DNA from: a virus
Reading direction: 5' to 3' (one strand)
Virus genome (UHGV): UHGV-0310767
Length of the DNA: 64,000 nt
Shown: positions 1-47,323 of the stretch, piece after piece
Layout: each line of letters starts with the position of its first letter
Numbering within the stretch: position 1 is the first letter of the stretch
Notes under the pieces: model-generated
The model's database searches: none
The model's input: the letters and a program-made list of their open reading frames with translations, nothing else
Told to the model about the DNA's origin: nothing
Position numbers and translations under genes: made by a program

Positions 1-3000
1 TAAATAGTAGTAATTTTCAGATTTTAGTTGCGGCAACATTGGATGCCGCTAATATACAAAAACAGTTAAACGCAATATCCAAAAAATATGGAACGATGAA
101 GATTAATTTAGATGTAGACAATACATCTTTAAATAATGCCACTAACTCATTAAATAATTATCAGCAAGGTTTAAAACAAACTAGTGAAGCGGCACAAAAT
201 ACATCTCAAAGCATTGGAGACATTATAGGTAAAGTAACCAAATTTGGGGGGGCTACTTTAATTATAAATAAATTTCGACAAGCAATTGTTGATGGATATG
301 GTGCAGTAAAAGAACTTGATGCTTCTGTAACAGAATATAGAAAAGTATCAGAACTTACAGATTCTCAAATGGGAGGTTTCATTGATACCGCCAGAGAATT
401 AGGTTTAACAGTGGCAAGAACAGCAGATGAAATGGTAGAAGCGGCTACAGAATTTAAAAAGATGGGTAATGATGATTCCACATCTTTACAGTTAGGTAGA
501 TTAGCTACTATGTTTCAGAATATTGCTGATGAAGCAATAAGTGCTGGTGATAGTGCTAGTTTTATTAACTCTCAGATGAAAGCATTTAATTTTACAGCTA
601 ATGAAGCTATTCATGTTTTGGATGCTGTTAATGAGGTAGCTAATAATTTTGCTGTTTCTTCTGGTGATATTTCTACAGCTTTACCCAAAGTTGCTAGTAC
701 AATGGCATTAGCTGGAAATAGTTTTGAGGAAACTATAGGATTACTTACGGCTGGTGCTGAAATAATTCCTAATCAGGCTTCCAGAATTGCTAGAGGTTTA
801 CGTTCTATCACTTTGAATCTTCAAGGTTTAAATGAGGATGGAGAGCAAGTTGCTGGAATGGCGGCTTCTATGCAGGAAGAATTTGATAAGTTAGGTATTT
901 CTTTGCTGGACAATCAGGGACAGATTAAAAGTACTTATCAGATTTTTAGCGAATTAGCAGAAATTTTCCCAAAATTAGATAAAAATACACAAACGTATTA
1001 TGCTAGTTTGATTGGCGGTAAAACTCAGGTAGACGTAGTAACAGCCATACTTAAAAACTTTGAAACTGCACTTAACGCTACAGATACAGCTATAAATTCT
1101 GTTGGTTCTGCCATGATAGAAAATGAGAAATATCTTGATTCTATTCAAGGTAAATTATCTGCTTTAAATTCTGAATTTGAGAAATTCTGGACAGAAGGAA
1201 TCAGTTCAGATATGGTAAAACAGATAGTTGAATTTGGAACAGGTGTTCTTAAATTAGTAAATGCTTTAGGTGGATTACCTACTATTCTTACAGCCGTAGT
1301 AGGAATTATAGCTACTTTAAAAGGCTATAACATAATAACTTCTTTAGGTAAAATGGGAAGTTCGTTAGCTAATGTTATAGGTTTAGTAGTTAGTTTAAGG
1401 AAAGATGGTTTTTCTTTAATTGAAATATTTACTGGCTTATCTTCTAGTGCTACATTAGCAAGTGTGGCTATTGGTGGAGTTGCGGCGGCCTTAACTATAG
1501 GTGTTGCGGCCTATTCTTATTATACTCAAGCACAAGCCAAAGCAAGAGAAGAAGCTTTAAAAGCCGCAGAAGATTTCGGCACAGAAGCCACTTCTTTAGC
1601 AGATTTACAGAAAAAGTATAATGAAATATGGACTTCTCAAGATGATGAAGAAACAAAAGCTACTAAATTAGCAGAAGTTAGAAAAACTTTAACTGACCAG
1701 TATGGGCTTGAAAAAGAACAATTGGATAAGTTAAATGAAAGTCGTGAAGCTGGAAATGCTTTATTAAACGAAGAAGCTTTTTCAAAAGCCGCAGAAGCTT
1801 ATGCAAAAAGTGTAGACGAAATACAGAAAGCACAAGAATATCTCCTTAATAATTCTATGCTTAATTATGGTGTAGATATAGGAAATAATTTAAGTGATGA
1901 AGTATTTGCTAAATTAGATAAAGCTTTTAAAGATGTATCTGAAAAAGCGCAAGGAATGATTGTAAATCTTAAAGGTACACCAGAAGAATTAGAAAAAGCT
2001 TTAGTAGAAGCTATCAATTATATGTCAGCTTTAGAGAATCCCACTCAAAATGAAATAAATTTATTAAATCGTTTTAAGAGTGATTTAAGAAGTTTATCGA
2101 AAGAAATTGATAGTTCTAATGAAGTTATAAGTAGAACACAGCAAGCTTATCTGCTTAATAACGATGCAGTTCAAACTTTCCTTAATTCCAGTTATCAAAC
2201 AAAGGAAGAAATGGAAGCGGCAAAACAAGTAGTGTTAGATAGTTTAACACCTCTTGATTCTTACCGTAAAGGTTTTGAAAATATTGTTAGTAGTGCGTTC
2301 CCAGAATGGAGCGAAAGTTCTAAAGAAAATGCAGAAGATTTAAGAGTTGAAATGAACAATGGTTCTGATGCCGCCGAGGAATATGCTAAAAAGATAAAAG
2401 AATTAGCAGGAAGTTTAAGTGAATGTCAAACTGCCTATGATACACTTACAGAGGTAGCAAAGGAATACAATGAAACTGGTAACTTAAATGTTGAAACTTT
2501 ATCGAAATTATTAAAGCTTAATCCAGAGTTTTACCAAGCTTTATCTATGCAAGAGGGAAAGCTGGTTGTCAATACTGAACTTCTTAACCAGATGGCTCAG
2601 GAGTACGCTACAAATGCGTACAGCGCAGTAACAGCGGCCCAAGGGGTTGATACCTTATCTACTTCGTTGGATGGAACTGCAACGGCAGGAATTGACGCTA
2701 CTCAGCGAATAACCGAAGCCGGGAACGCCGCTATAGAAGCAGGACAGAAAGCTTTAGAAGGTGCAAAAGGATTTAGGTCACTTATAGGAAGTATGGGGAC
2801 ATTTGTCAGTACTTTAAAAAGTGGTTTAACTGGTGATAATGGAGATGGAACAAAAGAGTATGGTCATGCTTTTGATGCTCAAGTTCAAGCTTATCAAAAG
2901 AAACAGCAAGATGATTTATTAGCCCATTTATTTGATGGGATTTCAATTGATACTAGTGGTGGAAAGAAAAAGGGTGGTGGCAAATCTGGTAAGGATAGTG

Positions 3001-4535
3001 CAGAGAAAGCCGCCAAAGAAGCCGCAAAAGCTTACAAAGAAGAATTTGAAAAACGTATCAGCGAAATTAAATTTAAGTTTGATATGGGAGATGTTACTGA
3101 ACTAGGATATTGGAAAGAAGTAGATAAAATAGTTCAGGAATTTTATGCTAATAATGAAGCTTATGCAGAAGAATATAGAGATTGGACAGCTAAGATACAA
3201 AAAGGAATGGTATCTGGAACTAAAGCAAACTTTGAATTAGAAAGGGATGCTTTAGACCATAAGTTAGCTATGGATTTGATTTCTCAAGAAACTTATTATA
3301 GAGAACTTGAGAAATTAAGACAAAAGTATTATGCACAGGATGCTATTTATGCGGCACAAAGTGAAGATATCGAAGAAGAAATATATGCTTTTAAGAAAAA
3401 GAAATTAAAAGATTTAGCAGAAGAACGTAAGAGACAGCGTAAAAAAGAATGGGATGAAGAAACAGATTGGTTAAATGAGCAGAAGTCACGTTATGAAACT
3501 GCTTTTAATTATATTGATTCTTTAGCCCAGAAAGAAATTGATGCTCTTGAAGAACAAAAGAAAGCTATTGAAGATAAATACAATGCAGAGATAGATAAAA
3601 TCAATGAAGCGCAAGATGCTTTAAATGATGAAATTGAATTGCAGGAAAAGTTAGAAGCTTTAGCCAAAGCTCAGAACACAAAGATTAGAGTTTATCGTGA
3701 AGGTGTAGGTTTTGTTTATGAAAATGACCAGTCTGCCGTAGATGAAGCCAAAGCCGCTCTTACACAGTATCAGAAAGAACAGGATACTAAGAAAGAGATT
3801 AAACGATTAGAAGATATTAGAGATGCTACAATCGAAAGTGTAGAGGAACAGATTGAGTATTGGGAAAAGTATAGGGATGAATGGAAAGACATGGTTAATT
3901 CCTATACAGAACAACAGAACAAACTTATTGCTGAACAGGTTTTAGGTATTTCACTTGAAGGTGAAAACTGGGAAAAACGTTTAGGAAATTTACAAGATTA
4001 CGTAGATAGATATAACAGCATTCTTTCTCAATTGAAACATAGAGGAAGTTATGATGATGATGATGATGATTGGGACGATGATGATTATGATTATGGTACT
4101 GGTGGAGGTGGTGGCTCTGCTGGTGGAGGTGGCACAATTGGCCCGTCTGACCATGCTGGAAGTGGTGGACATTGGGATTCCAGTGATTCATCACATGGCC
4201 CCGGTGTAGCCGCTAATGGAACAACGACAGGCCATGGTCTTACAATGGTAGGAGAAAAAGGTAGAGAATTAAGAGTTTTAGGAAACGGAGTAAACGAAGC
4301 TGACGGTATTGTTCCTAATCATTTGACTGAGAATCTTATGAAATTAGGACAATATTCACCTAGAGAATGGATTAATGCTCTTACACACAATCCTGGTAAT
4401 CAACAGTGTTCAACGCAGTATTCTTATGCGTTTGATAGTCTAGTATTACCTAATGTAACTAATGCAGATAGCTTTATTAGTGAATTAAAAAATATTAAAA
4501 ATCAGGCAATTCAGATGGGAGGAAGGAGGTTTTAA
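1..4535 (+). CDS. Tail tape measure protein, 5'-partial (the reading frame is open to the window start). Long coiled-coil alpha-helical protein with a C-terminal poly-Asp/poly-Gly low-complexity segment.
   Basis: 1498-aa ORF of TMP-like composition (A/E/K/L/Q-rich, coiled-coil heptads). Position immediately upstream of the tail/baseplate genes. No in-frame stop between nt 3 and 39, so it is probably truncated by the window edge. Confidence 0.8.
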   Translation, partial: NSSNFQILVAATLDAANIQKQLNAISKKYGTMKINLDVDNTSLNNATNSLNNYQQGLKQTSEAAQNTSQSIGDIIGKVTKFGGATLIINKFRQAIVDGYGAVKELDASVTEYRKVSELTDSQMGGFIDTARELGLTVARTADEMVEAATEFKKMGNDDSTSLQLGRLATMFQNIADEAISAGDSASFINSQMKAFNFTANEAIHVLDAVNEVANNFAVSSGDISTALPKVASTMALAGNSFEETIGLLTAGAEIIPNQASRIARGLRSITLNLQGLNEDGEQVAGMAASMQEEFDKLGISLLDNQGQIKSTYQIFSELAEIFPKLDKNTQTYYASLIGGKTQVDVVTAILKNFETALNATDTAINSVGSAMIENEKYLDSIQGKLSALNSEFEKFWTEGISSDMVKQIVEFGTGVLKLVNALGGLPTILTAVVGIIATLKGYNIITSLGKMGSSLANVIGLVVSLRKDGFSLIEIFTGLSSSATLASVAIGGVAAALTIGVAAYSYYTQAQAKAREEALKAAEDFGTEATSLADLQKKYNEIWTSQDDEETKATKLAEVRKTLTDQYGLEKEQLDKLNESREAGNALLNEEAFSKAAEAYAKSVDEIQKAQEYLLNNSMLNYGVDIGNNLSDEVFAKLDKAFKDVSEKAQGMIVNLKGTPEELEKALVEAINYMSALENPTQNEINLLNRFKSDLRSLSKEIDSSNEVISRTQQAYLLNNDAVQTFLNSSYQTKEEMEAAKQVVLDSLTPLDSYRKGFENIVSSAFPEWSESSKENAEDLRVEMNNGSDAAEEYAKKIKELAGSLSECQTAYDTLTEVAKEYNETGNLNVETLSKLLKLNPEFYQALSMQEGKLVVNTELLNQMAQEYATNAYSAVTAAQGVDTLSTSLDGTATAGIDATQRITEAGNAAIEAGQKALEGAKGFRSLIGSMGTFVSTLKSGLTGDNGDGTKEYGHAFDAQVQAYQKKQQDDLLAHLFDGISIDTSGGKKKGGGKSGKDSAEKAAKEAAKAYKEEFEKRISEIKFKFDMGDVTELGYWKEVDKIVQEFYANNEAYAEEYRDWTAKIQKGMVSGTKANFELERDALDHKLAMDLISQETYYRELEKLRQKYYAQDAIYAAQSEDIEEEIYAFKKKKLKDLAEERKRQRKKEWDEETDWLNEQKSRYETAFNYIDSLAQKEIDALEEQKKAIEDKYNAEIDKINEAQDALNDEIELQEKLEALAKAQNTKIRVYREGVGFVYENDQSAVDEAKAALTQYQKEQDTKKEIKRLEDIRDATIESVEEQIEYWEKYRDEWKDMVNSYTEQQNKLIAEQVLGISLEGENWEKRLGNLQDYVDRYNSILSQLKHRGSYDDDDDDWDDDDYDYGTGGGGGSAGGGGTIGPSDHAGSGGHWDSSDSSHGPGVAANGTTTGHGLTMVGEKGRELRVLGNGVNEADGIVPNHLTENLMKLGQYSPREWINALTHNPGNQQCSTQYSYAFDSLVLPNVTNADSFISELKNIKNQAIQMGGRRF

Positions 4536-5097: not shown

Positions 5098-5118
5098 TAT
5101 AAAGGGGTGAAAAAATAA

Positions 5119-6264
5119 ATGGTAACAAAACCAATACTTAATGCTATGATAGCATTCGATGCTACCAATCCTGCAACATTTACATTTTACTCTGTTGGTG
5201 GTAATCAGGTAGTAAAAAATCAGCTTACTATAAGAAATAATTCTACTAATCAGATAATTTATCAAAACTCAGTAGAAACATTTAAGTTTGAGCATACTGT
5301 TCCTGGTGGGACTTTAACTAATGGAACATATTATAATGCTTCTATTATCACTTATGATGCTACAGGAGAAGCAAGTACTCCTAGTGAACCTATACAGTTT
5401 TGGTGTTATAGTGCACCTACTTTAACTTTTACTAATATTCCTCCCACATTGATTATAAATGCTTCAAGTTTTTTATTTGAGTTTACTTATAATCAGGCAC
5501 AGGGAGAATTGTTAAATTACTATTCTGTTATTTTATATAACTCAAATCATAGTGAAATAAATAACAGTGGAGAAATTTATCCTGGGGCCGGGACACCTCC
5601 GTTATCATTATCTTATTTATTAACAGGTTTTGATGATAAAACTTCTTATTATATAGAGGTAAAGGGGTATACAGTCAATGGAACTTTAGTTACTACAGGA
5701 CAGACTTTGTTTACAGTAACTTATTCTAGTCCTTCTGTTTTTGGTATTTTAGGATTGACAAATGACTGTAAAGAAGGATATATTACAGGAGAATCTATTA
5801 TTTCTATTATTGAAGGTGAAAGTAATCCTTCTCCACCTATATTTATCGACAATGCTACAGGTCAAGAAATTGACTTAAGAGGTGAGGGGCATTGGGTAAG
5901 ATGGGTGAGCGGATTCCAGGCAAATGGAGATTTCACTGCACAATGGTGGATGCGTGACATGAATCCTGATACAGAAATCAGTTATTTTTACAATAATATA
6001 GGACAAAAAATAACCTTTACTTATAGACATGGTTATTATAGAAATGAAACTACTTTAAAAACTTATGTAGAGTTATGGTGTACTAATAATGCTATAACAG
6101 GAGATATTTACTTTAGATATAGTAATTATATTCCCCTTCCTGCTGACACTGATTATTTAACTTTATGGGTAAGAAGGATTGGAAATATATACGATATTAT
6201 GTTGGTTAATTTAGGGCCTGTAATCCCCGTAGCCAAAGTTATAGGAGGTGGAGAGAATGTTTAG
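5119..6264 (+). CDS. Tail/baseplate structural protein (381 aa)
   Basis: Follows the TMP. Ser/Thr/Asn/Tyr-rich, beta-type composition typical of distal tail and baseplate proteins. RBS aaggggtgaaaaaataa ATG. Confidence 0.5.
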   Translation: MVTKPILNAMIAFDATNPATFTFYSVGGNQVVKNQLTIRNNSTNQIIYQNSVETFKFEHTVPGGTLTNGTYYNASIITYDATGEASTPSEPIQFWCYSAPTLTFTNIPPTLIINASSFLFEFTYNQAQGELLNYYSVILYNSNHSEINNSGEIYPGAGTPPLSLSYLLTGFDDKTSYYIEVKGYTVNGTLVTTGQTLFTVTYSSPSVFGILGLTNDCKEGYITGESIISIIEGESNPSPPIFIDNATGQEIDLRGEGHWVRWVSGFQANGDFTAQWWMRDMNPDTEISYFYNNIGQKITFTYRHGYYRNETTLKTYVELWCTNNAITGDIYFRYSNYIPLPADTDYLTLWVRRIGNIYDIMLVNLGPVIPVAKVIGGGENV

Positions 6265-7018
6265 TTTCGTAGGTTACAACTTCGTACAAGATAGTAACGC
6301 CCTCGACCCATCACCTAGTAGTGTAAATAACATAACTAGCATTCAGTTACAGAATGGTATTTACGATTATTTTCATTTGACCAATAATGTAACAGCCGAA
6401 TATTCTCCTATTGAGCCTTTAGAATGGGCTTATTTGGATATTATCAATGCTAATTTTAATGGTAATATCAATGGTGGTAACGTTGAGTTCTTATTGGATT
6501 ATTTGACAGCTATCAAAGTAAAGAGAAGAATAAAAGGAACTTTCAACTGGGTAACTTTGAAAACAGTTCCAGTTAAAACATTTGATGATTTAAACTTCGT
6601 GTTTAGGGATTATCTTAACGGAAATTTTGTGGATTATGAGTATGCTTTGGTTCCAATTCTAAATGGGGCCGAAGGAGATTATATAACCAATAGTATTACC
6701 AGCCAATTTGCAGGAGTGTTCTTATGTGATAAGGATACTATATACAAATATTATGCTGGTGTTTCTTATGGTAGTGCAAAACGTGTGAAAAAAGTAGGAG
6801 TATTTGAAGCTTTTGGTAGTCAGTATCCTATTGTAGTATCAAACGCTTTAACGAATTATCATTCTGGTAGTGTAAGCGGAACGATTCTTCCTAAAGATTA
6901 TGATGAAACTAGAGCCTTGAATAGAATGGCAATTGTACAACAGGGTAAAGAATTAATTGACTTTATTACAAATAATAAAGCAAAAATTCTAAAAGACTTA
7001 ACATTATGTGTTGCATAA
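6248..7018 (+). CDS. Baseplate/tail structural protein (256 aa). Possibly exon 1 of an intron-interrupted gene.
   Basis: Overlapping start with the upstream gene (translational coupling). Followed by a 310-nt structured non-coding region, an endonuclease ORF, and a short in-frame-looking coding segment at 8205..8370. Confidence 0.5.
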   Translation: MERMFSFVGYNFVQDSNALDPSPSSVNNITSIQLQNGIYDYFHLTNNVTAEYSPIEPLEWAYLDIINANFNGNINGGNVEFLLDYLTAIKVKRRIKGTFNWVTLKTVPVKTFDDLNFVFRDYLNGNFVDYEYALVPILNGAEGDYITNSITSQFAGVFLCDKDTIYKYYAGVSYGSAKRVKKVGVFEAFGSQYPIVVSNALTNYHSGSVSGTILPKDYDETRALNRMAIVQQGKELIDFITNNKAKILKDLTLCVA

Positions 7019-7331
7019 TATAGGTCGCTTTCATAGTGATATGAAAGAAAAATAATATATTGAATTGCTGGAAACCCCTAAAGCCGCATGAACCACAACG
7101 TAAGTATGAAATAAGACTAAGCGTGATGGTGACGAAAGTAGAAAGAATCATGTGGATGGCATAAGGTTAAATCCTAAGTGCTAATATAAAATGGGCAATC
7201 AGCCGCCAAGCCTTGAATAGAGGAAGGTTCAACGACTATCCCGTAAGGGAGTACACTGCAAGCGATTGGCAGTGGAAGTGGTATACGTCTTATAATCTTG
7301 ACCAATACTATAAAAAGAAGGAGGTGAAAAA

Positions 7332-8093
7332 ATGGTGATAGATAATCAAATGGTTGAAATGAAATGGCATCCAAGAAATAAACAATATTATACAGATTTG
7401 GGTTATATCTACACGAAAATAGGTGATAAATTTGAAGTGAAAGTAGAACATTTAACTAAAGGAGCAAAATCTTTAGTAGATGTTCGTTGTGATTATTGTG
7501 GGAAAATAATTAAAGTAAAATACCAAAATTATATAAATAGATATAGTCCCACATTAAAAGATGCTTGCACTCAGTGTAAAACTAAGAAAGCTATAGATTC
7601 TAATTTAAATAGATATGGAGTTTCAAATGTTTTTGAATTAGAAGATATAAAAAGCAAAAGTAAAAATACATTTTTGGAGAAATATGGAGTAGACCATTAT
7701 TCTAAGTCTACTGATTTTAAAAATGTAGTTCCTAACAAAATAAGAAAAACTTTGTATAGAAATGGTACAGTTCCTACTTCCAGTCAACAATTAAATATAT
7801 ATGATTTGTTGAAAACTAAATATAAAGAATGTTTCATTAATTATCCTTGTGGTTCATGCTCTTTAGGTTGTTTAGTGAAGGAAAAAGGTGTATCTATTGA
7901 TATAGAATATGATGGCAATTATTGGCATCAAGATAAACAAAAAGATAGAAAAAGAGATGAATTTATTAAGTCTCAAGGTTATAAAATATTAAGAATAAAA
8001 AGTGATAGAAATATTCCCACTTTAAAACAGTTAGTAAAAGCTATTAATTGTTTGGTCAAGAGCAATCATAGCTATAAGGAAATAAGATTATAA
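7332..8093 (+). CDS. Putative homing endonuclease, either free-standing or intron-encoded. N-terminal CxxC...CxxC zinc ribbon plus a C-terminal nuclease-like domain (IEYDGNYWH ... RDEFIKSQGYKILRI).
   Basis: Two Cys pairs (CDYCG, CTQCK). The C-terminal motif resembles Vsr/PD-(D/E)XK-type homing endonucleases. Inserted into the structural module between coding segments. Strong RBS aagaaggaggtgaaaaa ATG. Confidence 0.4.
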   Translation: MVIDNQMVEMKWHPRNKQYYTDLGYIYTKIGDKFEVKVEHLTKGAKSLVDVRCDYCGKIIKVKYQNYINRYSPTLKDACTQCKTKKAIDSNLNRYGVSNVFELEDIKSKSKNTFLEKYGVDHYSKSTDFKNVVPNKIRKTLYRNGTVPTSSQQLNIYDLLKTKYKECFINYPCGSCSLGCLVKEKGVSIDIEYDGNYWHQDKQKDRKRDEFIKSQGYKILRIKSDRNIPTLKQLVKAINCLVKSNHSYKEIRL

Positions 8094-8388
8094 GACGAAG
8101 ATATAGTCTGTGCTTTATAGAAATATAAAGATGCACGTAATGGTGCTGACATAATGTAGCGAATTATGTTGAACAAAAACAGGGAATGGAAATGTATGGT
8201 TGATTATGCCAATTGGAGAGCCAACTACTAGTTATAATAGTAGCTGGGGTATGGGTAAAATTGATGTAAACTTTGAGTATGTAGAGGTAGGAGATGCCAA
8301 TTCAGAAAGTGATTTAATGTCACTGGGATTGATTGAACCATCGGTTGATACTTCTACAATTAATAAATAAAGAAAGGAGTAGATTAAT

Positions 8389-9804
8389 ATGGCTTTAATA
8401 ATAAATCAAGATTTATACACAGTTACTAAGCAAAGAGTTAAAAATCGTCAGATAAAAATTAATCTACTCAATTATTCTTATCAGATTGTAGACGAAATAA
8501 CAGGTAATGTTGTAAGTGGAACCATTAATGTTGATGCTAATAATGACCAGCGAAGGTCTTGCAACATTACCTTAGTTGTAGATGATAGGAATGAATTTGA
8601 GATTAAGAGTGGTGGAAAAATTTGGTTAGATAAGTACATTCAGATTTTTGTTTCTGAGTTTAATTTCTTAACACAGGAATGGCAGTGGGTTAATTTGGGT
8701 ATTTATATTATTAATACTCCCACATGGGCTTATGATGCTTCTACAAATGCTTTATCTTTTGAAGGTTTAGACTTAATGGCTAAATTAACAGGTGTAAGAA
8801 ATGGATATATTAGTGATATGCCTACACTTATTCCCCAGGGAAGTAATGTACGTAATGCTATTATTGAAATTTTGAAATTGGCAGGAGTAGAAAAGTATAT
8901 TGTAGAAGAATTACCTTATACTTTACCTTATGATATACAGGTAGATATAGGAGATACAGTCTATAATTTATTGGCTCAATTAAGAGATGTTGATGCTACA
9001 AAGGAAATCTTCTTTGATGTAAATGGAGTATTTAAATATCAAAGCATTCCTAGTGGTCATGATGAAGCGTCCCTTATAGATGATGATGTATGGAACATAG
9101 TTACATTGACAGAATCTATTGTTACAGATTTTGAATCAGTAAAAAATGTAATAAGAGTATTTGGAAAATCTCTTGACCCAACATATTTTCCTTCGGCAAC
9201 AACGGTTACAAGCAATATTATTAATCTAACAATTGCAGATTATCCTACTAATATTACTGCTGATACAAGTTTCACTGTAGGTTGGGTAAATCCTATAACT
9301 ATGGGTGGGAATCCTTTCATAAAAGTAAATTCTAATACTGCTTTACCTCTTGTTAATGAAGATGGAACACCAGCGGCATTAGATAGAGCTAATCAATACT
9401 ATGTTGCAAGATATCAAAATCAGAAATTTATATTTTTAGGATATCAGCAAATATATGGAGAAGCTAAAGATGAAAACCCAGAAAGTCCTTTCTATATAGG
9501 AAGTACAATAGGAGAAATTGCTATTCCTTTACAGGGTGGAGAATATGACAATATTTATACTAACGAATTAGCCCGTCAAAGAGCAAAATATGAATTATTT
9601 TTGCGTACAAGAATGAATGATGGAGTTAATTTAACATGTGTTCCTATTTGGTGGCTGGATGTAAATATAGTTGTTTCGTATACAGTAAAGGATACTAATA
9701 CGCCAAAACAATATATTATTAAAAGCTTTTCAGCGGATTTGCAAGAAACTGGTGTTCAGAATATCAGTATGATATCTTATTATCCGCAATATGAATCTTT
9801 TTAA
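8389..9804 (+). CDS. Baseplate/tail structural protein (471 aa)
   Basis: RBS aaggagtagattaat ATG. Position in the tail module. Confidence 0.5.
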   Translation: MALIINQDLYTVTKQRVKNRQIKINLLNYSYQIVDEITGNVVSGTINVDANNDQRRSCNITLVVDDRNEFEIKSGGKIWLDKYIQIFVSEFNFLTQEWQWVNLGIYIINTPTWAYDASTNALSFEGLDLMAKLTGVRNGYISDMPTLIPQGSNVRNAIIEILKLAGVEKYIVEELPYTLPYDIQVDIGDTVYNLLAQLRDVDATKEIFFDVNGVFKYQSIPSGHDEASLIDDDVWNIVTLTESIVTDFESVKNVIRVFGKSLDPTYFPSATTVTSNIINLTIADYPTNITADTSFTVGWVNPITMGGNPFIKVNSNTALPLVNEDGTPAALDRANQYYVARYQNQKFIFLGYQQIYGEAKDENPESPFYIGSTIGEIAIPLQGGEYDNIYTNELARQRAKYELFLRTRMNDGVNLTCVPIWWLDVNIVVSYTVKDTNTPKQYIIKSFSADLQETGVQNISMISYYPQYESF

Positions 9805-15173: not shown

Positions 15174-16526
15174 ATGGCTATAATGAATAACTTTGCTTCT
15201 GGTGGTGCGCCTACAGATGAATTGACGGCAACCCCGGCAGAAGTAATGAAAGGTTATAAATTTCTAGGTGCTGGTTCTGATGAAGAACAAACTGGTACAT
15301 TGGAATTAACTGGAAATGCGGCTGTTAATCATGTTTTACAAGGTGAAACATTTTATAATACAAATCCTAAGAACAAACTTACAGGTACTATGACTGTAAA
15401 TAGTATATTTTCTTTTAAGGCGCAAGTAGTCAGTGGGCGGCAGATTTTGTTTACATGGCAAAATCCGACTACTGCGACAGGAAAGCCGTTCAGCGGAGTA
15501 TGTATAAATTATTCTACTTCTGGATATCCTGGTACGGGAGGTACACGATTATATACAGGAGTAGGAAGCAATAGTGCTTCTGGTGGTACATCTCAAGCTT
15601 ATTTAAATTTACCTAATCTTAATACAGCTTATTATTTTAGTTGTTATTCTTTTGTGAATATTAATAATAATGCAGATAATAAGTATGGTACAGTATTCAA
15701 TGCTAGTGCAACTACAGGAAGAAACATAAGTTTAACTTTTACTCAAAGTCAAGACTATACAATTCCAGGAGGATTTACATTGTTAGATGTATTCCTTGTA
15801 GGAGGTGGAAATAGTGGTATAAGAGGTAACGGAAGAGCTAATAATTGGAAATATGCAGGAGATGGAGGTGGCGGTGGTTATACCAAAACGCAAAGAAATA
15901 TTGGTATAGCTGGCGGTCAAGTTTTAAGATTTAATGTAGGTGGTGGTGGTGGATTTGTTGCAGGTTTAGCATACAATCAATCTGGACAAAGAACTTTTAA
16001 TGTAGGAGGGGTTTCAAGTGTAGTAAGAAGTGGAAGTGTTTTAGCTACTGTTAATGGAGGAAATGATTTTAATGGTGGCTCTGGTGGCGGCGCATATGGT
16101 GAACAAGTATATTTTGGAGAGAATGATTTTAAACACTATGTAGGAAATGGAGGTTCTAATGGTGGAAATGGTGGTTCTACTTTAATAAATAGAAATGGAA
16201 CTACAAGACCAGGAGGTGCAGGACAGAGATTTAGTACAAGAGCCTGGGATGGAACAGGTGCACAATACTCTGCTGGTGGCGGTGGTGGTGCACAACCAGG
16301 AGCAAGATTAGCTGGTTCTGGCGGCTCTGGTGGTAGCCCAGGTGGAGGTAAAGGTGGTAATGCTTGGGCTGGTGGAACAAATGGAGAAAATGGACAAAAC
16401 GGTTCTGCAAATACTGGCTCTGGCGGCGGTGGTGGCGGCGGTTGTGCCTATTATCAAGGTCGTTCTGGTGGTAGTGGTGGAGGCGGTGCTGGTGGTTCTG
16501 GTATCATTTTAGCCATTCTTCATTAA
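15174..16526 (+). CDS. Glycine-rich tail-fibre paralog 2. Intact, with no homopolymer at the N-terminus (MAIMNNFASGGAP).
   Basis: 450 aa. Conserved N-terminal domain (LTATPxEVxxGYKFxG ... TGNAxxNHV ... NPK ... SGR ... PYSGV). Long Gly-rich C-terminal part ending in GSGIILAILH. Confidence 0.7.
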   Translation: MAIMNNFASGGAPTDELTATPAEVMKGYKFLGAGSDEEQTGTLELTGNAAVNHVLQGETFYNTNPKNKLTGTMTVNSIFSFKAQVVSGRQILFTWQNPTTATGKPFSGVCINYSTSGYPGTGGTRLYTGVGSNSASGGTSQAYLNLPNLNTAYYFSCYSFVNINNNADNKYGTVFNASATTGRNISLTFTQSQDYTIPGGFTLLDVFLVGGGNSGIRGNGRANNWKYAGDGGGGGYTKTQRNIGIAGGQVLRFNVGGGGGFVAGLAYNQSGQRTFNVGGVSSVVRSGSVLATVNGGNDFNGGSGGGAYGEQVYFGENDFKHYVGNGGSNGGNGGSTLINRNGTTRPGGAGQRFSTRAWDGTGAQYSAGGGGGAQPGARLAGSGGSGGSPGGGKGGNAWAGGTNGENGQNGSANTGSGGGGGGGCAYYQGRSGGSGGGGAGGSGIILAILH

Positions 16527-17553: not shown

Positions 17554-17630
17554 ATTGAAAAAGGGAAGGGTAAAACCTTCCCTTTTTACATATTTTTTAA
17601 TATGAATAAAAGGAAAAGAGGGAAATAAAA

Positions 17631-18866: not shown

Positions 18867-18905
18867 CAAATAGTGTAAAAAATAAATGAAAGAAAGGGAA
18901 TAATT

Positions 18906-33303: not shown

Positions 33304-34797
33304 TTATTCTTCCTCTCTATCTGCCCTTTCAAATTGTAATGATAAACTTAAATCAGGATTTACATTACGAATTTTTATTACACTATGCGTAAAGACAGAA
33401 TTTTTATATTTCTTTGCTATAAATTCTTCTTCATCATCTTCACTTTTACGATATCCTGATATCATAAGTAGTGTACCTTTTTTAAACCAATTAGTATCTT
33501 CGTCAAATTCTTCTGTTTCACTAATACTTTTTTTATAGTAAGCATACTGTCCTTCATTAAATTTAACCATAACTACATCATTATCTGGTGTAAGAAGATT
33601 AATAAAATGTTTACTGTCGTTACGACTTAATACCACACCACATATTCTTGAAAGGTCGTATTGTCTCCATTTTCTTTTCCCATTCTTACTACTTTTTTCT
33701 ACAAAAATAGGAGATGTGGGTAAATCTTGATAATGACTAATATTATATTCTTCAAAATCAATACCTGTAAGTTCGTGCTTATCTGGATAAAAAGAAATGG
33801 TTTCCATACTCCATTTAGGAATATTTTCATACTTTACCAGATTCATATATTCTTGTTGCCAATATTTCTTATTGTATTCTTCTACTAAAGATGGATTATT
33901 AATATAGCTTATTAATTCATCTAATTCTGGTTTTAGAACTTTATCCAAAGATTTATCAATAACAATAAGCATATCATTCTCGTAATAAAAATCTTTTCCT
34001 TCTGTAAGGTCATTAATATAATGTTCCTCAAAGAATGGTCTAGCAAATTTATCCTCAAGTATATAATCTTTTTTAGTCTTAAATTTCTCATTCTTACGAT
34101 AAAAGAAATTAGGACTTTCTACATATTTTCTAAAGTTATATACTTTAACAAGGTGTTTAGGAAGCGTACAACCCAATTCTAAGCATTTAGAAAGATTAGC
34201 CATAGTAAGAGTTGTCTTAGCTGGATTCTCCCAGCATATAAGCCATTTAAGCATTAATATCTTATCATCACATAATGAATCGAAACAACCAGCTTTAATT
34301 AAAGTGGCAAATATACTTTTTGTAACTAAACTTTTTCTATAAATCATATTTCCTTTTTCGTCCAATTCTCCCGTGGGAACTAATAAATTCTTCTGATAAT
34401 CATAAAATTCTTTGAACGAATTATAAGGTCTGCCGCTCATAATATCTTTGGCAACATCCCTATTCATTTTAGTAATTCCACCTAATCCAAAAAGAATTAA
34501 ACTTTCGTCTACTAAAGGAGTAAAGGATAAGTCTGATTTATTTATATCTGGCGGCAATGTATTTATACGATAATCTTTCATACGATAAATAGCTTTTGCC
34601 ATTTTTTCATAATTAGTTCCAGTATTCTTTTTCTTTCTTTCTAAATCTTCATATTCATCTTCATTTTCTTCTGTTGATGAAGATTCTACAGTTAAACAGG
34701 CACAAGCCCAAAATACAGGAGGAAAGAAGTAATTTACATTGAGTTCTTGTAAACCAATTACTGAGTAAGCGTACGAATGTAATTGGGAAAAGGAATT
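33304..34797 (-). CDS. dnaE: DNA polymerase III alpha subunit (DnaE-type) exon 3 (C-terminal part: HhH and OB region). The 5' boundary is approximate.
   Basis: The frame is open from 34797. Encodes ...HSYAYSVIGLQ...FWACACLTVESSS...TLPPDINKSDLSFTPLVDESLILFGLGGI, matching the DnaE FNKSHSAAYALVSYQ ... ILPPDIN ... FGLGAIKGVG region. Confidence 0.7.
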   Translation of the reverse strand, partial: NSFSQLHSYAYSVIGLQELNVNYFFPPVFWACACLTVESSSTEENEDEYEDLERKKKNTGTNYEKMAKAIYRMKDYRINTLPPDINKSDLSFTPLVDESLILFGLGGITKMNRDVAKDIMSGRPYNSFKEFYDYQKNLLVPTGELDEKGNMIYRKSLVTKSIFATLIKAGCFDSLCDDKILMLKWLICWENPAKTTLTMANLSKCLELGCTLPKHLVKVYNFRKYVESPNFFYRKNEKFKTKKDYILEDKFARPFFEEHYINDLTEGKDFYYENDMLIVIDKSLDKVLKPELDELISYINNPSLVEEYNKKYWQQEYMNLVKYENIPKWSMETISFYPDKHELTGIDFEEYNISHYQDLPTSPIFVEKSSKNGKRKWRQYDLSRICGVVLSRNDSKHFINLLTPDNDVVMVKFNEGQYAYYKKSISETEEFDEDTNWFKKGTLLMISGYRKSEDDEEEFIAKKYKNSVFTHSVIKIRNVNPDLSLSLQFERADREEE

Positions 34798-36188
34798 TCA
34801 ATAGTTTTAATTGCATTTCTACAACATATGTATTCCATAAACATATGAAATCATATGAACTATTGAGGACTATATCTTTGTAAAAATTAAAAAATGAATG
34901 AATGATATTATAAAAAATAACAAAGACGACAATTTTTTTAGTTTCTATTTAATTTCCTTTTATTAGGATTATTCCTAACTAATGTAGATTTAGTAATCCC
35001 CGTCATTTCAGCCACTTCATCATAGGTATGAGTTTTTAATAATTCTAATGCTTTACTCATATCTTCTTCTGAATAAGCTTTATAACTTTTACCTCTTTCG
35101 ATATTCCACATTCTACCTTCATTATCAGGAACTTCATTATTAAAACAAAACCATAATTGTTCCCTAGTTATAGGTAATGTAGCAATAGAAGTATAAGTGT
35201 TTACTTCATTATTCTTAATAGAAGTATATTTTTTAGGCTTATTATCATTGACAGCTTTTATTCTTTCTACATCTATTTGACTAGGAATTTTTGCATATCT
35301 CTCAATTAAAATATTATAATCTCTATAATAATGATTTTTATAAGATAAACGATACATTCTCATAGTATCTTTATTTTCATCATTATAAGAATTATAAACT
35401 TTAATCAACTCTCCATTTTCGTCATATTCTACACATTTTCTACTATTAGATTCTGTAGCTTTAAGTTGATTAATTCTACAAGATTCTTTACGTTTTTCAC
35501 TATCTTTGTTAATCAAACCAGTAGCAGAAGCATGAATCATATTAAGTTTTCTGTCTACCCATTCTAAATTAGTAGCTTTATTATTAGTTTTATCTCCATC
35601 AATATGATTTACTTCTTTATATTGTTCTGGTTTAGGATTTTCACAAAAAGCAAATGCTACTAATCTATGAACCATATAGTTATGTCCTTTTAAATTAATT
35701 CCCATATATCCAGTATTATTATTTTTGCAAGATTTTATATTCTTTTTGTTATGTTTTATATTGCCTAAATTACTTATATAATAATCTTTACTTCCCTCAA
35801 TCTCTTTCCAAATTTCCATTCTTTCTGAATTTTTCATATTTTCCTCCTTTCTTCATTATTTTTTAAAACAATCATTCATTCATCATCATTCATTTTTTAA
35901 TATTACAGATTTGCACTTCCATTAACGTATCAATAGTTAATGTACTTCCTGTCGGAATAGTCTCTACATCTTCTTTAATATTACTATTAAAGCTTGACAC
36001 GGTATTATCAGCTATCTATATATCTTAATATAGACCTTAGAATTTCTTAGTCAGCGGCTTCGTCCTTTTTATTATGCTGTAATCTAGTTGTAACTCTTGT
36101 ACAGCGGTCTTATTCAACTGATACCGTTAGCATTGCACTTCTATGCAACACACCCCTGATAGGGTTCACAAATCATGACCATTATTAC
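34798..36188 (-). mobile_element. Group-I-intron-like intervening sequence 2 in dnaE, carrying an HNH endonuclease ORF. Boundaries are approximate.
   Basis: About 1.39 kb between the dnaE coding segments. The homologous DnaE sequence stops at ...FGY and resumes at ...SQLHSYAYS. Contains ORF 34938..35837 plus about 350 nt of non-coding structured sequence. Confidence 0.6.
34938..35837 (-). CDS. Intron-encoded HNH homing endonuclease (NUMOD4/HNH_3-like; 299 aa).
   Basis: N-terminus WKEI...YYISNLGNI (NUMOD4-like) then HRLVAFAF...VNHIDGDKTNNKATNLEWV (HNH_3). Confidence 0.7.
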   Translation of the reverse strand: MKNSERMEIWKEIEGSKDYYISNLGNIKHNKKNIKSCKNNNTGYMGINLKGHNYMVHRLVAFAFCENPKPEQYKEVNHIDGDKTNNKATNLEWVDRKLNMIHASATGLINKDSEKRKESCRINQLKATESNSRKCVEYDENGELIKVYNSYNDENKDTMRMYRLSYKNHYYRDYNILIERYAKIPSQIDVERIKAVNDNKPKKYTSIKNNEVNTYTSIATLPITREQLWFCFNNEVPDNEGRMWNIERGKSYKAYSEEDMSKALELLKTHTYDEVAEMTGITKSTLVRNNPNKRKLNRN

Positions 36189-37313
36189 ATAGCCAAAACT
36201 CATACCAAATAATTCATACCATATATAATTGGCAAATAATTCTCTACACCCTTGTTTAATACAATGCTCAAAGAACATGATTCTTGTGGCTTCTAACACT
36301 TCATCGTCTTTTTTTGCTATAGCTTTTCTTAATTTATTGGCCTGTTTAAGACTAAATCCTGCAACTCTTTTATCCATGGAAATAAGCATAACTTTTTCCT
36401 GGGATTCTGGAAGCATACGAGAATCAGAACAATATTGTCTTATAACGTCCATTTCATCTTCTGTTAATCCATATTCATGACAATCTTTTTCCCATTCTTT
36501 TACATCGGCATATCTAGCATATCTCTGTAATGGAGTCTCAGTAGTTTCACCACTACCCATCAATCGTAATATGGAATTAGTTGCAGATAACTCCATTAAA
36601 TTTTTGGGCTGTACTACATTAATAGCATTTACTGACACAGGAGTATCGAACTGAAATAAAGAATAAATATCTTTAATGATTCCCCACATAGAAGGATTGT
36701 CATAATTTATAACATCTGGATGTAAGTACTTATCATATGTTGCTTTTAAATTACCTTGCCATTCTAAATATTTATGCTCAACCAATAAATCCATAGTAGT
36801 TCTTAATTTATCGCTGGCTTTTACTGTAAGCATATCTACTTTAACAATACCGCAATCTTCACAATCCTGCAAATCATAACAAGTACATAAATCTCCATTA
36901 GGGGCTTTCATACAAGAAATATAGTTAGTATAAGGCTCATTTGAGATAATTAATCCTGCGGCATGAAGTCCTCTACCAACGACAATTCCTTCTAAAGCTA
37001 ATGCACACTCTTTAAGATTAGGATACTTGTTAATTTCCTTTATAAATTCTTTTGCTGGTTTTCTATTTTTTTTAGTATTTCCTTCTAAACAATCCTTAAG
37101 ACTCCAAATCATTCCTCTTTCTACTGGAATTAAAGATTTAAGATATCCTGCGGCATCATCAGAAATTCCTAAACCTTTACAGGATTTTTCTATAGCTGTT
37201 TTGGAAGTCATTTCAGAAAATGTAGCCACTTTTAAAACCTTATCAAATCCCCAGAATTTTGCAATGTTGTGTGCAATAATTTGCTTTTTTGTATTCTGTG
37301 AATCTAAATCAAT
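36189..37313 (-). CDS. dnaE: DNA polymerase III alpha exon 2 (polymerase core middle part). Boundaries are approximate.
   Basis: Begins IDLDSQNTKKQIIAHNIAKFWGFDKVLKVATF (DnaE PD|IDIDF...VAQIATFG) and contains GRGLHAAGLIIS (DnaE GRHAAGVVI). Confidence 0.7.
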
Positions 37314-38163
37314 CCTTTATACCCCTGGTTTCCCAGTACTTTAACACATTTTATTTCAAATGTGGGAGTAGACTATATCTTCATCTTGTTTTATCAACAA
37401 GAGGATGGCACAGGATAAAAGGAATTTCACCTTTTACCACTTAGTCGTTTGAGTTTCAGCGCAATGTAATAAGTTTGAAATTTCTACTATAACCCCTTCT
37501 CATTAACATAGAATGTGAAACATCTAAATTATGAGAATCAATATATTTCTTTACCTCAGTGTTACCTTTTAATTTTGGACTTTTGTTACCATTAGGATAA
37601 ACTATTATATAATATAAATAATTTCTTACTGCATTTATTCCTGATGTTTCATAACTTTTATTTATATTTTCTTTTTGAGTTACCCATTCTAAATTGGTGT
37701 AATGATTATTAAGTGTATTTGCATCTTTGTGATTTACTACAGCACCTTCAAACCATCCAGGAACAAATGCCATAGCTACCAATTGATGAACCCCTTTTCT
37801 ATACACTTTATTATCCTTACTTAAGTCCACATATTTGTAACCGCCTTTATTAACAAATCCATTTAATATTTTGGGATTTTTATATTTATGGCTAATTACT
37901 TTTCCATCTTCTGTAACACTGTATTTTTCAAACTTATCAATTATTTTTTCTATTCTTTTTTTAATTTCCTTTCTACATATTCTTATTACTTGCGCCGCTT
38001 ACCACAGGATTACCATGCTTTTTTTAAAGTTTAGGCTTCCCCTGTTAGCACAATTCCTAATCATCATTTCCTATGATTCCTAAACGTGAATTGTACACCC
38101 TAGATTTCTAGGTTCACCATCTTATTTTCTATATGTCACCATATAGCCAGACTATTGAAGTTA
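37314..38163 (-). mobile_element. Group-I-intron-like intervening sequence 1 in dnaE, carrying an HNH endonuclease ORF. Boundaries are approximate.
   Basis: Exon 1 ends ...GIEIPD (last nt U) followed immediately by a stop. Exon 2 resumes IDLD after ...taaag|g. Contains ORF 37456..37830. Confidence 0.6.
37456..37830 (-). CDS. Intron-encoded HNH homing endonuclease (HNH_3; 124 aa).
   Basis: HQLVAMAF...VNHKDANTLNNHYTNLEWVTQKEN. Confidence 0.7.
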   Translation of the reverse strand: MDLSKDNKVYRKGVHQLVAMAFVPGWFEGAVVNHKDANTLNNHYTNLEWVTQKENINKSYETSGINAVRNYLYYIIVYPNGNKSPKLKGNTEVKKYIDSHNLDVSHSMLMRRGYSRNFKLITLR

Positions 38164-39585
38164 ATCTGGAATCTCAATACCTCTTTCTGTACTTAAATGT
38201 CTCCAATATGGAGCATAGTCACCCAAAGGTACAGGGTCAATTTGTGTAATTTCTAATAAATAACATGTTAAATATCCAAAAGCTGAACCTCTGGACGGCA
38301 TACAAAAACTATTTGATTCCCAAATTATTTCTACAATTCTACTTACACTAGTATAATAAGCCGCCATATGAGATTTGAATATTTCACTTAATCCTTTTAA
38401 TTCTTTAGCTTCTTTATTGATTCTATCAATATATGTTTCTAAATTCTTTTGTGGCTTACTTTCAATAAGTTTTTCTAACCCTTTTTCTACACGATAGAAA
38501 AAATACTGGTCTTGAATATTATCAGAATAAGCATAATATTTAAAATACTCATATTTATTATAATATTTTTTATATCTATGAGTAATTTTAAATTCTGGTA
38601 TTTTGTCCAATGGAATCTCTGGTATCATAGGCATATGTTTTAAATCATATGTTCTTACTCTATCTGCAATTTCATTACTATTTTTAAATATTGTATCTAT
38701 TTCTTCATCTGTAAATGTAATTCTTAAATGTTCCCTTAATTCCTGGGGAGACATAAGATAAGTAGTTGCATAGAAAGAATCTACTTCTCTGTCTCCATCT
38801 TTAGAATTAAGTAAAGTTTTATGATATAATGCTGATTCTTTGTTAAGATAATGAGTATCAGTTGTGGCTATAATTTTAAAACCATATTGTACTGAAAGTT
38901 CTTTCATGGCTTCATTCACTATAAGCTGGTCAACATTATCCTCTTTACACGGCTGAATCTCCAAGTAAAAATTGTTAGAGCCGAAAACTTTATTACACCA
39001 GGATAAAAAATCGCTTATGCGTTTTAAAACGCCTATACTCTTTTGTACCTCTTTATAACCCGGTTCTGGTTTCTTCCACTGCAAGATAAGTTTGTCAAGA
39101 TAGGAACCAAGACATGCAGAAGATGCAATTAAATGTCCTTTATTATTTCCGATAATTTCTTCTATATCAGAATAATAAGTTGGTCTACGCATAAGTCTAC
39201 GGGATGTATAAGCACGTTGCCATGCTTTACTACTTATTTCTCTTAATTGCTTATGACCTTCTGTATCTAAAGCAGTTAAAATAAAATGGTAATAGGGAGT
39301 ATAATCGGTTCCTTCTCTATTACTCATATCTTCTGCTTCACTCATAAGATATATTTCATTTCCTAATGCTAATTTAAAAGGTCTATCTTTCTCCATCTTT
39401 TCATAATATTTCAATGCTTGCATATGAGAAGATATACCTTCATGTTCTGTAATAGCTATTCCAGATAGCCCCAAATCATAAGCATACTGAATTAACTCAT
39501 TAACTCTAGTAATAGCATCAGGAAAACCTAATAACGCACTACTATAACATGAATGATTATGATTATCAAAATAAATATCTGTCAT
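38164..39585 (-). CDS. dnaE: DNA polymerase III alpha exon 1 (PHP domain plus the start of the polymerase core).
   Basis: N-terminus IYFDNHNHSCYSSALLGFPD (PHP HxH). Ends ...RHLSTERGIEIPD. Confidence 0.75.
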
Positions 39586-46631: not shown

Positions 46632-46829
46632 TAGTTTTTATCTTTATCCTTCAATTCGTAAAGTAAAATAACTCCCTAGTTTAAATCTGGGGAGTTATTT
46701 TTATTCACAATATTATTTACACAATGCTTAAACTACCTATTTTGAATAAATGAAAACTGCTATCAGGTTCCCGGTGTTAGCCCACCGGGACTTTTTATAT
46801 CATGTCCACATATCCAGTCAATAATCATA

Positions 46830-47312: not shown

Positions 47313-47323
47313 AATTTTTCTCC

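Follow-up and report, generated by a model that had tools for sequence, protein, structure and literature searches.

Introduction

Group I introns that carry homing endonucleases have long been established in the late genes of Firmicutes phages. Landthaler and Shub are said to have placed the introns of Twort orf142 in subgroup IA2 in 1999; the mark of this subgroup is a pair of extra hairpins, P7.1 and P7.2. Late-gene introns with endonucleases occur in Twort orf142, in the terminase genes of LL-H and Moonbeam, and in late genes of JCL1032, as cited in papers that include PMC6669764. Intron endonucleases with Vsr-like folds are known as well: I-Bth0305I, the prototype of the EDxHD enzymes, is encoded within a Firmicutes phage's group I intron and has such a fold at its C terminus (PMC3239194). 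Here, we describe a locus in the virus genome UHGV-0310767 from UHGV, of which we analyzed a stretch of 64,000 nucleotides (the window). In this locus, a baseplate gene is split by an insertion that contains its own open reading frame (ORF).

A first-pass annotation of the window had proposed that an intron with an endonuclease ORF lies inside a baseplate gene, and that an orphan frame downstream is the second exon of this gene. Uninterrupted homologs, a 1,184-bp insertion, and a match to group I introns all uphold this proposal. We conclude that positions 6999..8182 are very probably a group I intron of the Twort-orf142/IA2 type that splices itself, is mobile, and lies in a late baseplate-protein gene. 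The case is built by comparison: the insertion is exact, its removal restores the frame, its predicted fold is backed by covariation, the same site is occupied in diverged phages, and the insertion sits within an apparent co-conversion tract.

A late gene is interrupted by 1,184 nucleotides

We compared positions 5100-9800 of the window to phage genomes with megablast. Enterocloster phage PMBT24 is 98.1% identical to this region, and five CB457/CB473 phages are 95-96% identical. Each of these matches covers about 75% of the query and is in two pieces. The same gene is present without interruption in PMBT24 and in the CB457/CB473 phages (96-98% identity), and the 1,184 bases are absent. In PMBT24, the gene is a single coding sequence of 930 nucleotides, which encodes a protein of 309 amino acids (WDQ45523.1). 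In a local alignment, positions 1-737 of the PMBT24 gene fall on 6257-6993 of the window, and positions 743-930 fall on 8183-8370.

The sequence across the two junctions reads ATTCTAAAAGACT / TAACATTATG ... AACAAAAACAG / GGAATGGAAATG, or as RNA, GACU/UAAC...ACAG/GGAAUGG. The intron-less target is AAGGATTGGAACGGAAATGTG in PMBT24, and the cognate site is AAAGACTGGAATGGAAATGTA. Shifting either boundary by one base destroys the match to GAC TGG AAT. This fixes exon 1 at 6257..6998, the intron at 6999..8182, and exon 2 at 8183..8370, all on the plus strand (as are the other features of this locus). Exon 1 comprises 247 codons and the first base of the codon for W248; it ends with AAAGACU and aligns to positions 1-742 of the coding sequence of WDQ45523.1. 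Exon 2 runs from the GG of the W248 codon to the stop codon (TAA, 8368-8370) and aligns to positions 743-930 of the PMBT24 coding sequence. The intron of 1,184 nucleotides, which is missing from PMBT24 and the CB phages, is IA2-like and carries its ORF in the loop of P8.

The joined exons form a frame of 930 nucleotides that encodes 309 amino acids and differs from the PMBT24 protein only by Q30K. A protein search also identified an uninterrupted protein (P0121) that is 100% identical to the spliced product. All but one of the differences from PMBT24 within the exons are synonymous, which indicates that purifying selection acts on the gene as one continuous frame. More broadly, over 100 homologs are uninterrupted (300-319 amino acids) and cover 95-100% of the spliced product, so excision restores a continuous frame that is colinear with the intron-less homologs. 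These proteins continue past the end of the upstream ORF, and the frame at 8183-8370 has homologs. The intron cuts the codon for W248 (T/GG) within the block KAKILKDWNGN. K246, D247, and W248 are invariant in 29 homologs of the host protein, with identities down to 48%. The insertion thus interrupts the motif in which the host protein is most conserved, and a homing site would be expected at such a place.

These comparisons also refine the gene models. The upstream ORF of the first-pass annotation, from GTG at 6248 to 7018, is present, but the true start is the ATG at 6257. AGGAGG at 6243-6248 lies 8 nucleotides upstream of this ATG, the GTG falls within that ribosome-binding site (RBS), and the PMBT24 homolog starts at the same place (MFSFVGYNF). 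At its other end, the coding part of exon 1 stops at 6998, and the last 20 nucleotides of the listed ORF are read-through into the intron. The orphan frame lacks a convincing RBS, as had been noted, and it closes at 8368-8370, just ahead of the RBS of the next gene (8389..9804). However, exon 2 begins at 8183 instead of at about 8205. The general proposal of a group I or group II intron with a nuclease therefore stands with new boundaries (between 6998 and 6999 and between 8182 and 8183) and with a more specific nuclease, which is Vsr/DUF559-like.

That the gene is interrupted would also be expected of another kind of intervening element, such as a group II intron, an intein, or a segment that is skipped by translational bypassing. 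None of these fits the locus. We found no reverse transcriptase and no match to a group II model in Rfam. An intein would be translated in the host frame, which reaches a stop codon just past the junction (7016-7018). For bypassing, 1,184 nucleotides is too long, and to our knowledge it far exceeds any known bypass. We give these explanations almost no credence.

The interrupted gene lies two genes past the tape measure gene, and genes for a DUF5048 tail protein and tail fibers come after it. The PMBT24 homolog is flanked by two genes that are annotated as "baseplate hub protein." An AlphaFold model of the 309-residue protein has middling confidence overall (pLDDT of 69), with values of 80-88 in the C-terminal third. 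When we compared this model to PDB with Foldseek, the five best matches were all chains from contractile-tail baseplates (E of 4e-4 to 8e-4, probability 1.00): pyocin R2 (6u5b_g), phage Bas63, the Agrobacterium phages Milano and 7-7-1, and phiCD508. Baseplate chains of diffocin, Mu, and phi812 were weaker matches. Given the structural matches and the position of the gene, "baseplate gene" is a fair description, and the model suggests a tube-fold component of the baseplate or initiator.

The insertion resembles a group I ribozyme

The first-pass annotation had called for a search with structural models. In a permissive scan of 6900-8400 (1.5 kb), the Rfam model for group I introns (RF00028) matched both flanks of the endonuclease ORF on the plus strand: 6995-7323 (36.4 bits, E = 2.8e-7) and 8013-8130 (24.2 bits, E = 1.3e-3). 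We interpret these as the two halves of one ribozyme, which are parted by the ORF. The roughly 310 nucleotides after the upstream ORF (7019-7331) had been described as structured and non-coding. This segment has no credible ORF, and the 5' half of the intron folds better than shuffled sequences do (z = -2.19): the minimum free energy structure of 6999-7301 recovers most of the helices described here, including the extension of P1.

The 5' half begins with P1 (6995..7026), in which GACU of exon 1 (6995-6998) and UA of the intron (6999-7000) would pair with UAGGUC (7021-7026), so that U6998 is opposite G7023 at the splice site. An extension hairpin of P1 (7003-7008/7014-7019) can be read from the sequence; in the related phage L009, U7009.G7013 becomes C-G. 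P2 (7028-7035/7040-7047) has 8 base pairs and a GUGA tetraloop. P3 pairs UAUAUUG (7056-7062) with UGGUAUA (7279-7285), in a register that is kept in the homologs that we parsed, and J3/4 reads AAU. The P4-P6 domain (7067..7228), as predicted by RNAalifold from 10 homologs, includes P4 (7067-7071/7199-7203), P5 (7076-7078/7193-7195) with a large, conserved, branched extension of about 110 nucleotides (7081-7189), P6 (7206-7207/7226-7227), and P6a (7211-7213/7221-7223).

Further along, P7 pairs GACUAU (7234-7239) with AUAGUC (8103-8108), which fits the Rfam consensus. P7.1 (7240-7242/7247-7249, with a GUAA loop) and P7.2 (7254-7259/7269-7274) lie between P7 and the 3' strand of P3. P8 (7286-7299/8084-8097) is a perfect stem of 14 base pairs (an exact inverted match of 14 nucleotides) around the ORF. 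The 3' half of the ribozyme (8084..8182), which accounts for the second Rfam match, comprises the 3' strand of P8, J8/7, the 3' strand of P7, P9 (8113-8119/8124-8130, with a GAAA loop), P9.1 (8133-8136/8143-8146), and P9.2 (8149-8155/8163-8169). It ends with G8182.

Thus, the locus has the boundary hallmarks of group I introns: the exon ends with a U (U6998) that can wobble with G7023, where GACU faces GGUC (7023-7026), and the intron ends with a G. It also has both of the IA2 hairpins, P7.1 and P7.2, and both of them covary.

From these features, we predict the following course of splicing. The gene would be transcribed as a single pre-mRNA, in which the ribozyme folds into P1 through P9.2. 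An external guanosine would attack after U6998, which is held opposite G7023 by the U.G wobble. Exon 1, now released, would then attack after the terminal G8182 and join GACU to GGAAUGG. This ligation would restore W248 of the invariant K-D-W motif and yield the protein of 309 amino acids. Because the ORF lies in the loop of P8, its translation would compete with the folding of P8.

Relatives of the ribozyme and covariation

Using the intron alone as the query for a sensitive nucleotide search, we found its 5' core in 255 phage records. We retrieved six of the matching loci for comparison: the terminase large-subunit gene of CB457P2 (90.6% identity over 266 nucleotides; the core is also in the other four CB phages), which contains an I-TevI-like ORF; Clostridioides phage ES-S-0173-01, where the location of the match is not annotated; Alicyclobacillus phage KKP_3916, between hypothetical genes; the portal gene of Bacillus phage LY2, with transposase ORFs; Clostridium phage c-st, between hypothetical genes, with the insertion sequence protein OrfB; and the tail tube region of Staphylococcus phage DELF3, with three to four tandem compact cores. 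Helices were extracted with sequence anchors, as MAFFT misaligned the distant homologs at the 3' strand of P3; one of the DELF3 cores (DELF3_d) was left out. Within the window, we searched for a second copy of the ribozyme or of the ORF and found none.

From ten sequences, RNAalifold independently predicted P4, P5, the P5 extension, P6, P6a, and P7.1, with compensatory changes in 27 of 45 pairs. In all ten of the homologs that we parsed, P3, P7.1, P7.2, P8, and P9 form helices despite differing sequences, and P9.1 and P9.2 recur with covariation in most of these homologs, so the core helices from P3 to P8 show the covariation expected of a group I intron. For instance, P3 is formed by UAUA/UAUA, UGUG/CACA, CUACC/GGUAG, CUCC/GGAG, or CCCU/AGGG in different homologs. 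The strands of P7, CAACGACUA and GAUAUAGUC, are invariant in every homolog examined. In P2, L009 has a compensated pair at 7029/7046 (U-A to G-C), and the CB457P2 paralog has two (7032/7043, C-G to U-A, and 7035/7040, A-U to G-C). Even copies that are nearly identical to the window's have double compensations in P6a: 7212/7222 and 7213/7221 both changed in contig L004, and 7211/7223 changed in phage L008. The loop of P7.1 is GUAA in the window and GCAA in L004 and L008, which retains the GNRA form.

Free-standing endonuclease genes are common in phages, and the annotation of PMBT24 includes an HNH homing endonuclease beside the gene for DNA polymerase III alpha (polIII alpha). So we considered whether the insertion might have no function as RNA, for example as a homing endonuclease gene that stands by itself, with a promoter and a terminator as its flanks. 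But these flanks match the group I model, and they are 75-91% identical to ribozyme cores in unrelated phage genes, where they accompany other ORFs or none. A free-standing gene would also not account for the U and the terminal G at the boundaries or for the exact restoration of the frame. We consider this explanation very improbable, and we proceed with a group I intron.

Among known systems, the ribozyme is 74-76% identical over about 190 nucleotides to sequences from kayvirus, silviavirus, and related staphylococcal phage records. Like the Herelleviridae introns (relatives of those in Twort orf142), it has P7.1, P7.2, P9, P9.1, and P9.2, and its host is a Firmicutes phage, where it interrupts a late gene for a structural protein. 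Unlike the Twort orf142 relatives, it has an ORF in the loop of P8, and the gene that it interrupts encodes a baseplate protein in an Enterocloster phage. The link to Twort orf142 itself is presumed. In phage vB_SauH_DELF3, the region 2676-3650, downstream of the tail tube ORF, is unannotated. It contains four copies of the 5' motif of P7 and three complete, compact, tandem cores, which resembles the three-intron orf142 of Twort. In contrast to the window's intron, the three DELF3 cores that we parsed have no ORF and lack the branched P5 extension.

A much closer relative is the terminase intron of CB457P1, CB457P2, and CB473P1-3, which are from the same phage group. Its similarity to the window's intron includes the P5 extension, P6, P7.1, and P7.2. 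However, it is in another host gene, has another guide sequence, and has a plain P8 hairpin. Its ORF encodes a GIY-YIG endonuclease similar to I-TevI and lies 3' of P9. In the other homologs that we parsed, P8 is a plain hairpin of 4-9 base pairs, and only the window's type has an ORF there. The P8 of the CB457P2 paralog (similar to CAUCUUAU...AUAAGAUG) is recognizable as the inner part of the window's P8, which suggests that a ribozyme already in existence received the endonuclease gene in its L8 loop. Given two types of ORFs in two different loops, one ribozyme chassis appears to have been invaded independently by two endonuclease families.

Compared to PMBT24, the terminase large-subunit gene of CB457P2 (L003) has two insertions. 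The one at 1956-2232 (277 nucleotides) has no annotated ORF, and the one at 2987-4250 is the paralogous intron with the I-TevI-like ORF. The 5' splice site of this paralog (GGAUU/A, which pairs with GGUCC) looks clear, but we found no 3' splice site that would restore the terminase frame. This may reflect a sequencing indel or an unusual junction. On a JGI metagenome contig (3300029078, our L005), positions 1-4200 contain a terminase large-subunit gene (99.7% identical to PMBT24 up to 16343) that runs directly into the window's intron from 7028 on and skips about 22 kb of structural genes. L005 is most likely an assembly chimera that was formed via the near-identical cores of the terminase and baseplate introns.

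IStron-type elements combine a group I ribozyme with transposase genes of the IS200/IS605 type. Cores that are 79-80% identical to the window's are found with transposase ORFs in c-st (L013), where the passenger is OrfB, and in Bacillus phage vB_BceH_LY2 (L012), where the portal gene is split and two ORFs are annotated as "transposase." Given these annotations, these loci look IStron-like. In the window, the passenger is a homing endonuclease instead of a transposase.

The intron-encoded endonuclease

The intron's ORF (7332..8093) encodes 253 amino acids and has a strong RBS, AGGAGG at 7319-7324, which is 7 nucleotides 5' of the ATG. As had been noticed at first pass, it combines a zinc ribbon with a nuclease-like region. 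Pfam identifies DUF7487 repeats (37.7 bits, E = 2.8e-9, cutoff 27) and a C-terminal DUF559 domain (28.2 bits, E = 1.9e-6, cutoff 20.6), and there is a match below the cutoff to the MTES_1575 restriction endonuclease (REase) family (25.6 versus 38.2 bits). In PHROGs, the protein matches phrog_12131, "homing endonuclease" (E = 1e-23). NCBIfam gave nothing useful for the endonuclease or its neighbors. Matches to zinc-ribbon families were weak, and the CxxC...CxxC cysteines (C53/C56 and C79/C82) are invariant or nearly so in 25 homologs. We found 293 homologs in all. Nearly all are unnamed, and they have the same set of domains with a varying number of K-YGV repeats of about 30 amino acids.

Sequence matches to solved structures were marginal, so a comparison of folds was needed. 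An AlphaFold2 model of the endonuclease has a pLDDT of 93.3. Its top Foldseek match in PDB is the Vsr endonuclease (1cw0_A, probability 0.99, E = 8.6e-3), and it also matches the catalytic domain of I-Bth0305I (3r3p_B, probability 0.96, target TM of 0.60). These matches indicate a Vsr-like nuclease fold.

The window's protein departs from I-Bth0305I in several ways. The two are only marginally similar by sequence (E of ~0.02-0.1). E192, H199, and D205 of the window's protein align with E206, H213, and D222, and D194 is opposite N208. The composite motif of I-Bth0305I is E170, D196, x208, H213, and D222 (PMC3239194). The window's ORF does not have this full composite motif: its family has an aspartate at the "x" position, the equivalent of E170 appears to be a glutamine (Q153) in most members (this mapping is tentative), and the window's copy lacks the first aspartate. 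At the N terminus, where I-Bth0305I has a NUMOD2/helix-turn-helix region, Pfam detects no NUMOD domain; it shows the zinc ribbon and the DUF7487 repeats there. Judging from the model, the family is Vsr-like and related to the EDxHD enzymes, yet it is no clear member of that group.

We found no paper that mentions DUF7487 in the literature that we could search. It is possible, although we think it doubtful, that proteins with a zinc ribbon, DUF7487 repeats, and a Vsr-like domain are an uncharacterized lineage of homing endonucleases, distinct from the EDxHD prototype, that read DNA via the variable, helical K-YGV repeats. If so, the variants at residues 179 and 149 that we discuss below (Asp179 in L008, Gly179 in the window, and T149I in the L004 group) would be a natural matched set for studying this lineage.

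The 3' strand of P8 includes the final three codons of the ORF as well as its stop codon (8091-8093). Translation of the ORF and formation of P8 would thus be mutually exclusive on one RNA molecule.

Homing and co-conversion

An endonuclease that differs by two residues is encoded in the same gene context on contigs L004, L006, and L007 from human-gut metagenomes. Two truncated matches of 253 amino acids in the search with the host protein led to two more phages, L008 and L009, with an intron at the identical site. L008 is a diverged phage: its flanking genes are 78-88% identical to the window overall (by nucleotide; 78% for the upstream gene and 83% for the downstream gene), and its exon 1 is 85% identical. 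In contrast, its 5' ribozyme half is 95.8% identical, its endonuclease ORF is 99.6% identical, and its 3' ribozyme half is 100% identical, as is that of L004. L009 is more distant, with 74% identity in exon 1, 86% in the 5' ribozyme half, and 74% in a fragment of the ORF.

Throughout most of exon 1, L008 and the window have 6-18 mismatches per 50 nucleotides. There are none over the last 121 nucleotides of exon 1 (6878-6998) or the first 37 nucleotides of exon 2 (8183-8219). We then considered the 152 sites that differ between PMBT24 and L008. Outside of this tract (positions 12-489 and 780-923 of the spliced gene), the window sides with PMBT24 at 139 of 141 sites. Astride the junction at 742/743, at spliced positions 663-762, it sides with L008 at all 11 sites. 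We interpret this L008-like stretch as a co-conversion tract. From the informative sites that match L008, the upstream part covers at least 6919..6998 and begins no earlier than 6746, and the downstream part covers at least 8183..8202 and ends no later than 8219. Synonymous markers in the flanking exon sequence lie at 6982, 6994, 6997, 8187, 8196, 8200, and 8202. The tract of L004 is shorter, as L004 sides with PMBT24 at 663-687; this suggests separate transfer or repair events in the lineages of L004 and the window.

That diverged phages carry this intron at an identical site, along with the co-conversion tract, points indirectly to homing. An active endonuclease would cut intron-less alleles near the insertion site, and repair from an intron-bearing genome would copy the intron and some of the flanking exon.

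Another patch of exon 1 does not match any of these relatives. At 6823-6877, five synonymous substitutions that are unique to the window are clustered within 55 nucleotides, and PMBT24, L004, and L008 all share one state at these sites. This patch may come from yet another donor allele.

A probable loss of cleavage activity

The window's endonuclease differs from that of L008 by a single residue: codon 179 (7866..7868) is GGT (Gly) in the window and GAT (Asp) in all of the sister copies (L004-L008). This position is Asp in 24 of 24 aligned homologs and in 113 of the 115 homologs that we fetched. Asp179, a putative catalytic residue that would bind magnesium, aligns with the conserved aspartate of a DUF559 structure (3hrl), and it corresponds by position to D196 of I-Bth0305I (D51 of Vsr). 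An essential aspartate that coordinates magnesium is among the motif residues of I-Bth0305I, and D196A along with H213A inactivated the construct of the catalytic domain that was used for overexpression (PMC3239194). Because Gly replaces a nearly invariant Asp that is equivalent to D196, the window's enzyme is probably unable to cleave. Alternatively, Gly179 is possibly a sequencing error.

The copies in L004-L007 differ from the window's at residue 179 and also at residue 149. In these metagenomic copies, Ile replaces Thr149, a nearly invariant residue of the P-T-S motif that is retained in the window and L008, so a second conserved site has changed in a second lineage. If Gly179 and T149I arose independently, in genes that are otherwise 99.6-99.7% identical by nucleotide, selection may have actively favored disarming the nuclease after the intron was fixed, a reading that we likewise think doubtful.

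Is the intron functional and mobile?

Several points weigh against our view of this locus. No match in the window to any Rfam model reaches the gathering score (50 bits for RF00028); the best is 36.4 bits. The shortfall is expected because the ORF in L8, at 762 nucleotides, splits the match. An E-value scan of the whole window with Rfam found nothing and missed even the intron at 6999..8182, which we attribute to the stringency of the filters on long inputs, as scans of short sub-windows did find it. By inspection, we found no convincing P10, as 8183-8190 is not clearly complementary to 7010-7022. In many introns, P10 is weak or dispensable. The sequence of the endonuclease resembles those of solved Vsr-type structures weakly (E of 0.01-0.1), and the Foldseek E-values are modest (9e-3 to 9e-2). 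With the conserved aspartate gone, present-day mobility from the window's genome is doubtful. Finally, we infer splicing and catalysis themselves, as well as the cleavage site, from sequence.

These points raise the question of whether the intron has decayed and no longer splices, in which case the baseplate gene would be a pseudogene, or would yield a truncated protein of 253 amino acids along with a separately started C-terminal fragment. Gene callers do report such ORFs on metagenomic contigs (253 amino acids for exon 1 and 54 amino acids from an ATG at 8206), the probably-inactivating change in the endonuclease is itself a sign of some decay, and a sub-threshold Rfam score might be taken as another. 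Yet the core helices are all intact, with compensatory changes even among very close copies, and the 3' half is 100% identical between phages that diverge by 12-22% in the flanking genes. A split within the invariant K-D-W of a structural protein with over 100 uninterrupted homologs, an exon 2 that has no RBS, and the near-absence of nonsynonymous differences from PMBT24 are also hard to reconcile with decay. We consider a non-splicing remnant very improbable, and we favor an intron that still splices and whose endonuclease has probably lost its activity.

Other insertions in the window

The first-pass annotation counted this as a possible third intron. Whether that count holds depends on the polIII alpha gene, which is on the minus strand and, relative to PMBT24, is broken by two insertions into three ORFs (33304..34602, 36141..37229, and 38161..39585). 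The insertions are at 34792-36188 (1,397 nucleotides) and 37305-38164 (860 nucleotides), and each has an ORF for an HNH endonuclease (299 amino acids with NUMOD4, HNH_3, and HTH_49, and 124 amino acids with HNH_3, respectively). The second insertion has a weak match to the Rfam group I model (37355-37481, 19.6 bits, E = 0.019), and the first has no Rfam group I match. These are probably the other two introns of the first-pass annotation and are at most candidate group I introns.

Relative to PMBT24, the window also has an in-frame addition of 420 nucleotides in a tail fiber gene of 1,087 amino acids (10596-11015); an insertion in an ORF of 450 amino acids with no match in Pfam (15492-16494); an insertion that holds a glycine-rich-domain protein of 411 amino acids (17666-18911); and an insertion with two minus-strand ORFs (160 and 365 amino acids) near the primase gene (46829-48345). 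A weak match to the Rfam family Termite-leu at 17557-17618 on the plus strand (27.2 bits versus a gathering score of 51, E = 0.006) is probably due to chance.

Conclusions

Given that both group I introns with homing endonucleases in the late genes of Firmicutes phages and intron endonucleases with Vsr-like folds (PMC3239194) were already known, the locus in the window is a well-supported new instance, and it leaves our knowledge of group I introns unchanged. It does have a practical consequence for annotation: on metagenomic contigs, this gene is miscalled as three ORFs (253, 253, and 54 amino acids), which should be one spliced baseplate protein of 309 amino acids and one intron-encoded endonuclease.

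Mildly noteworthy features of the locus are an uncharacterized endonuclease architecture, which gives Pfam's DUF7487 a plausible biological role; a scaffold that is shared with a GIY-YIG gene in sister phages, so that a single type of ribozyme bears two unrelated endonuclease families at different loops; and what seems to be a natural catalytic mutant. For the Enterocloster gut phages, the locus appears to be a clean natural case of intron homing, with a measurable co-conversion tract whose length differs between two lineages. The sequences bear clear traces that the intron has spread recently between these phages.

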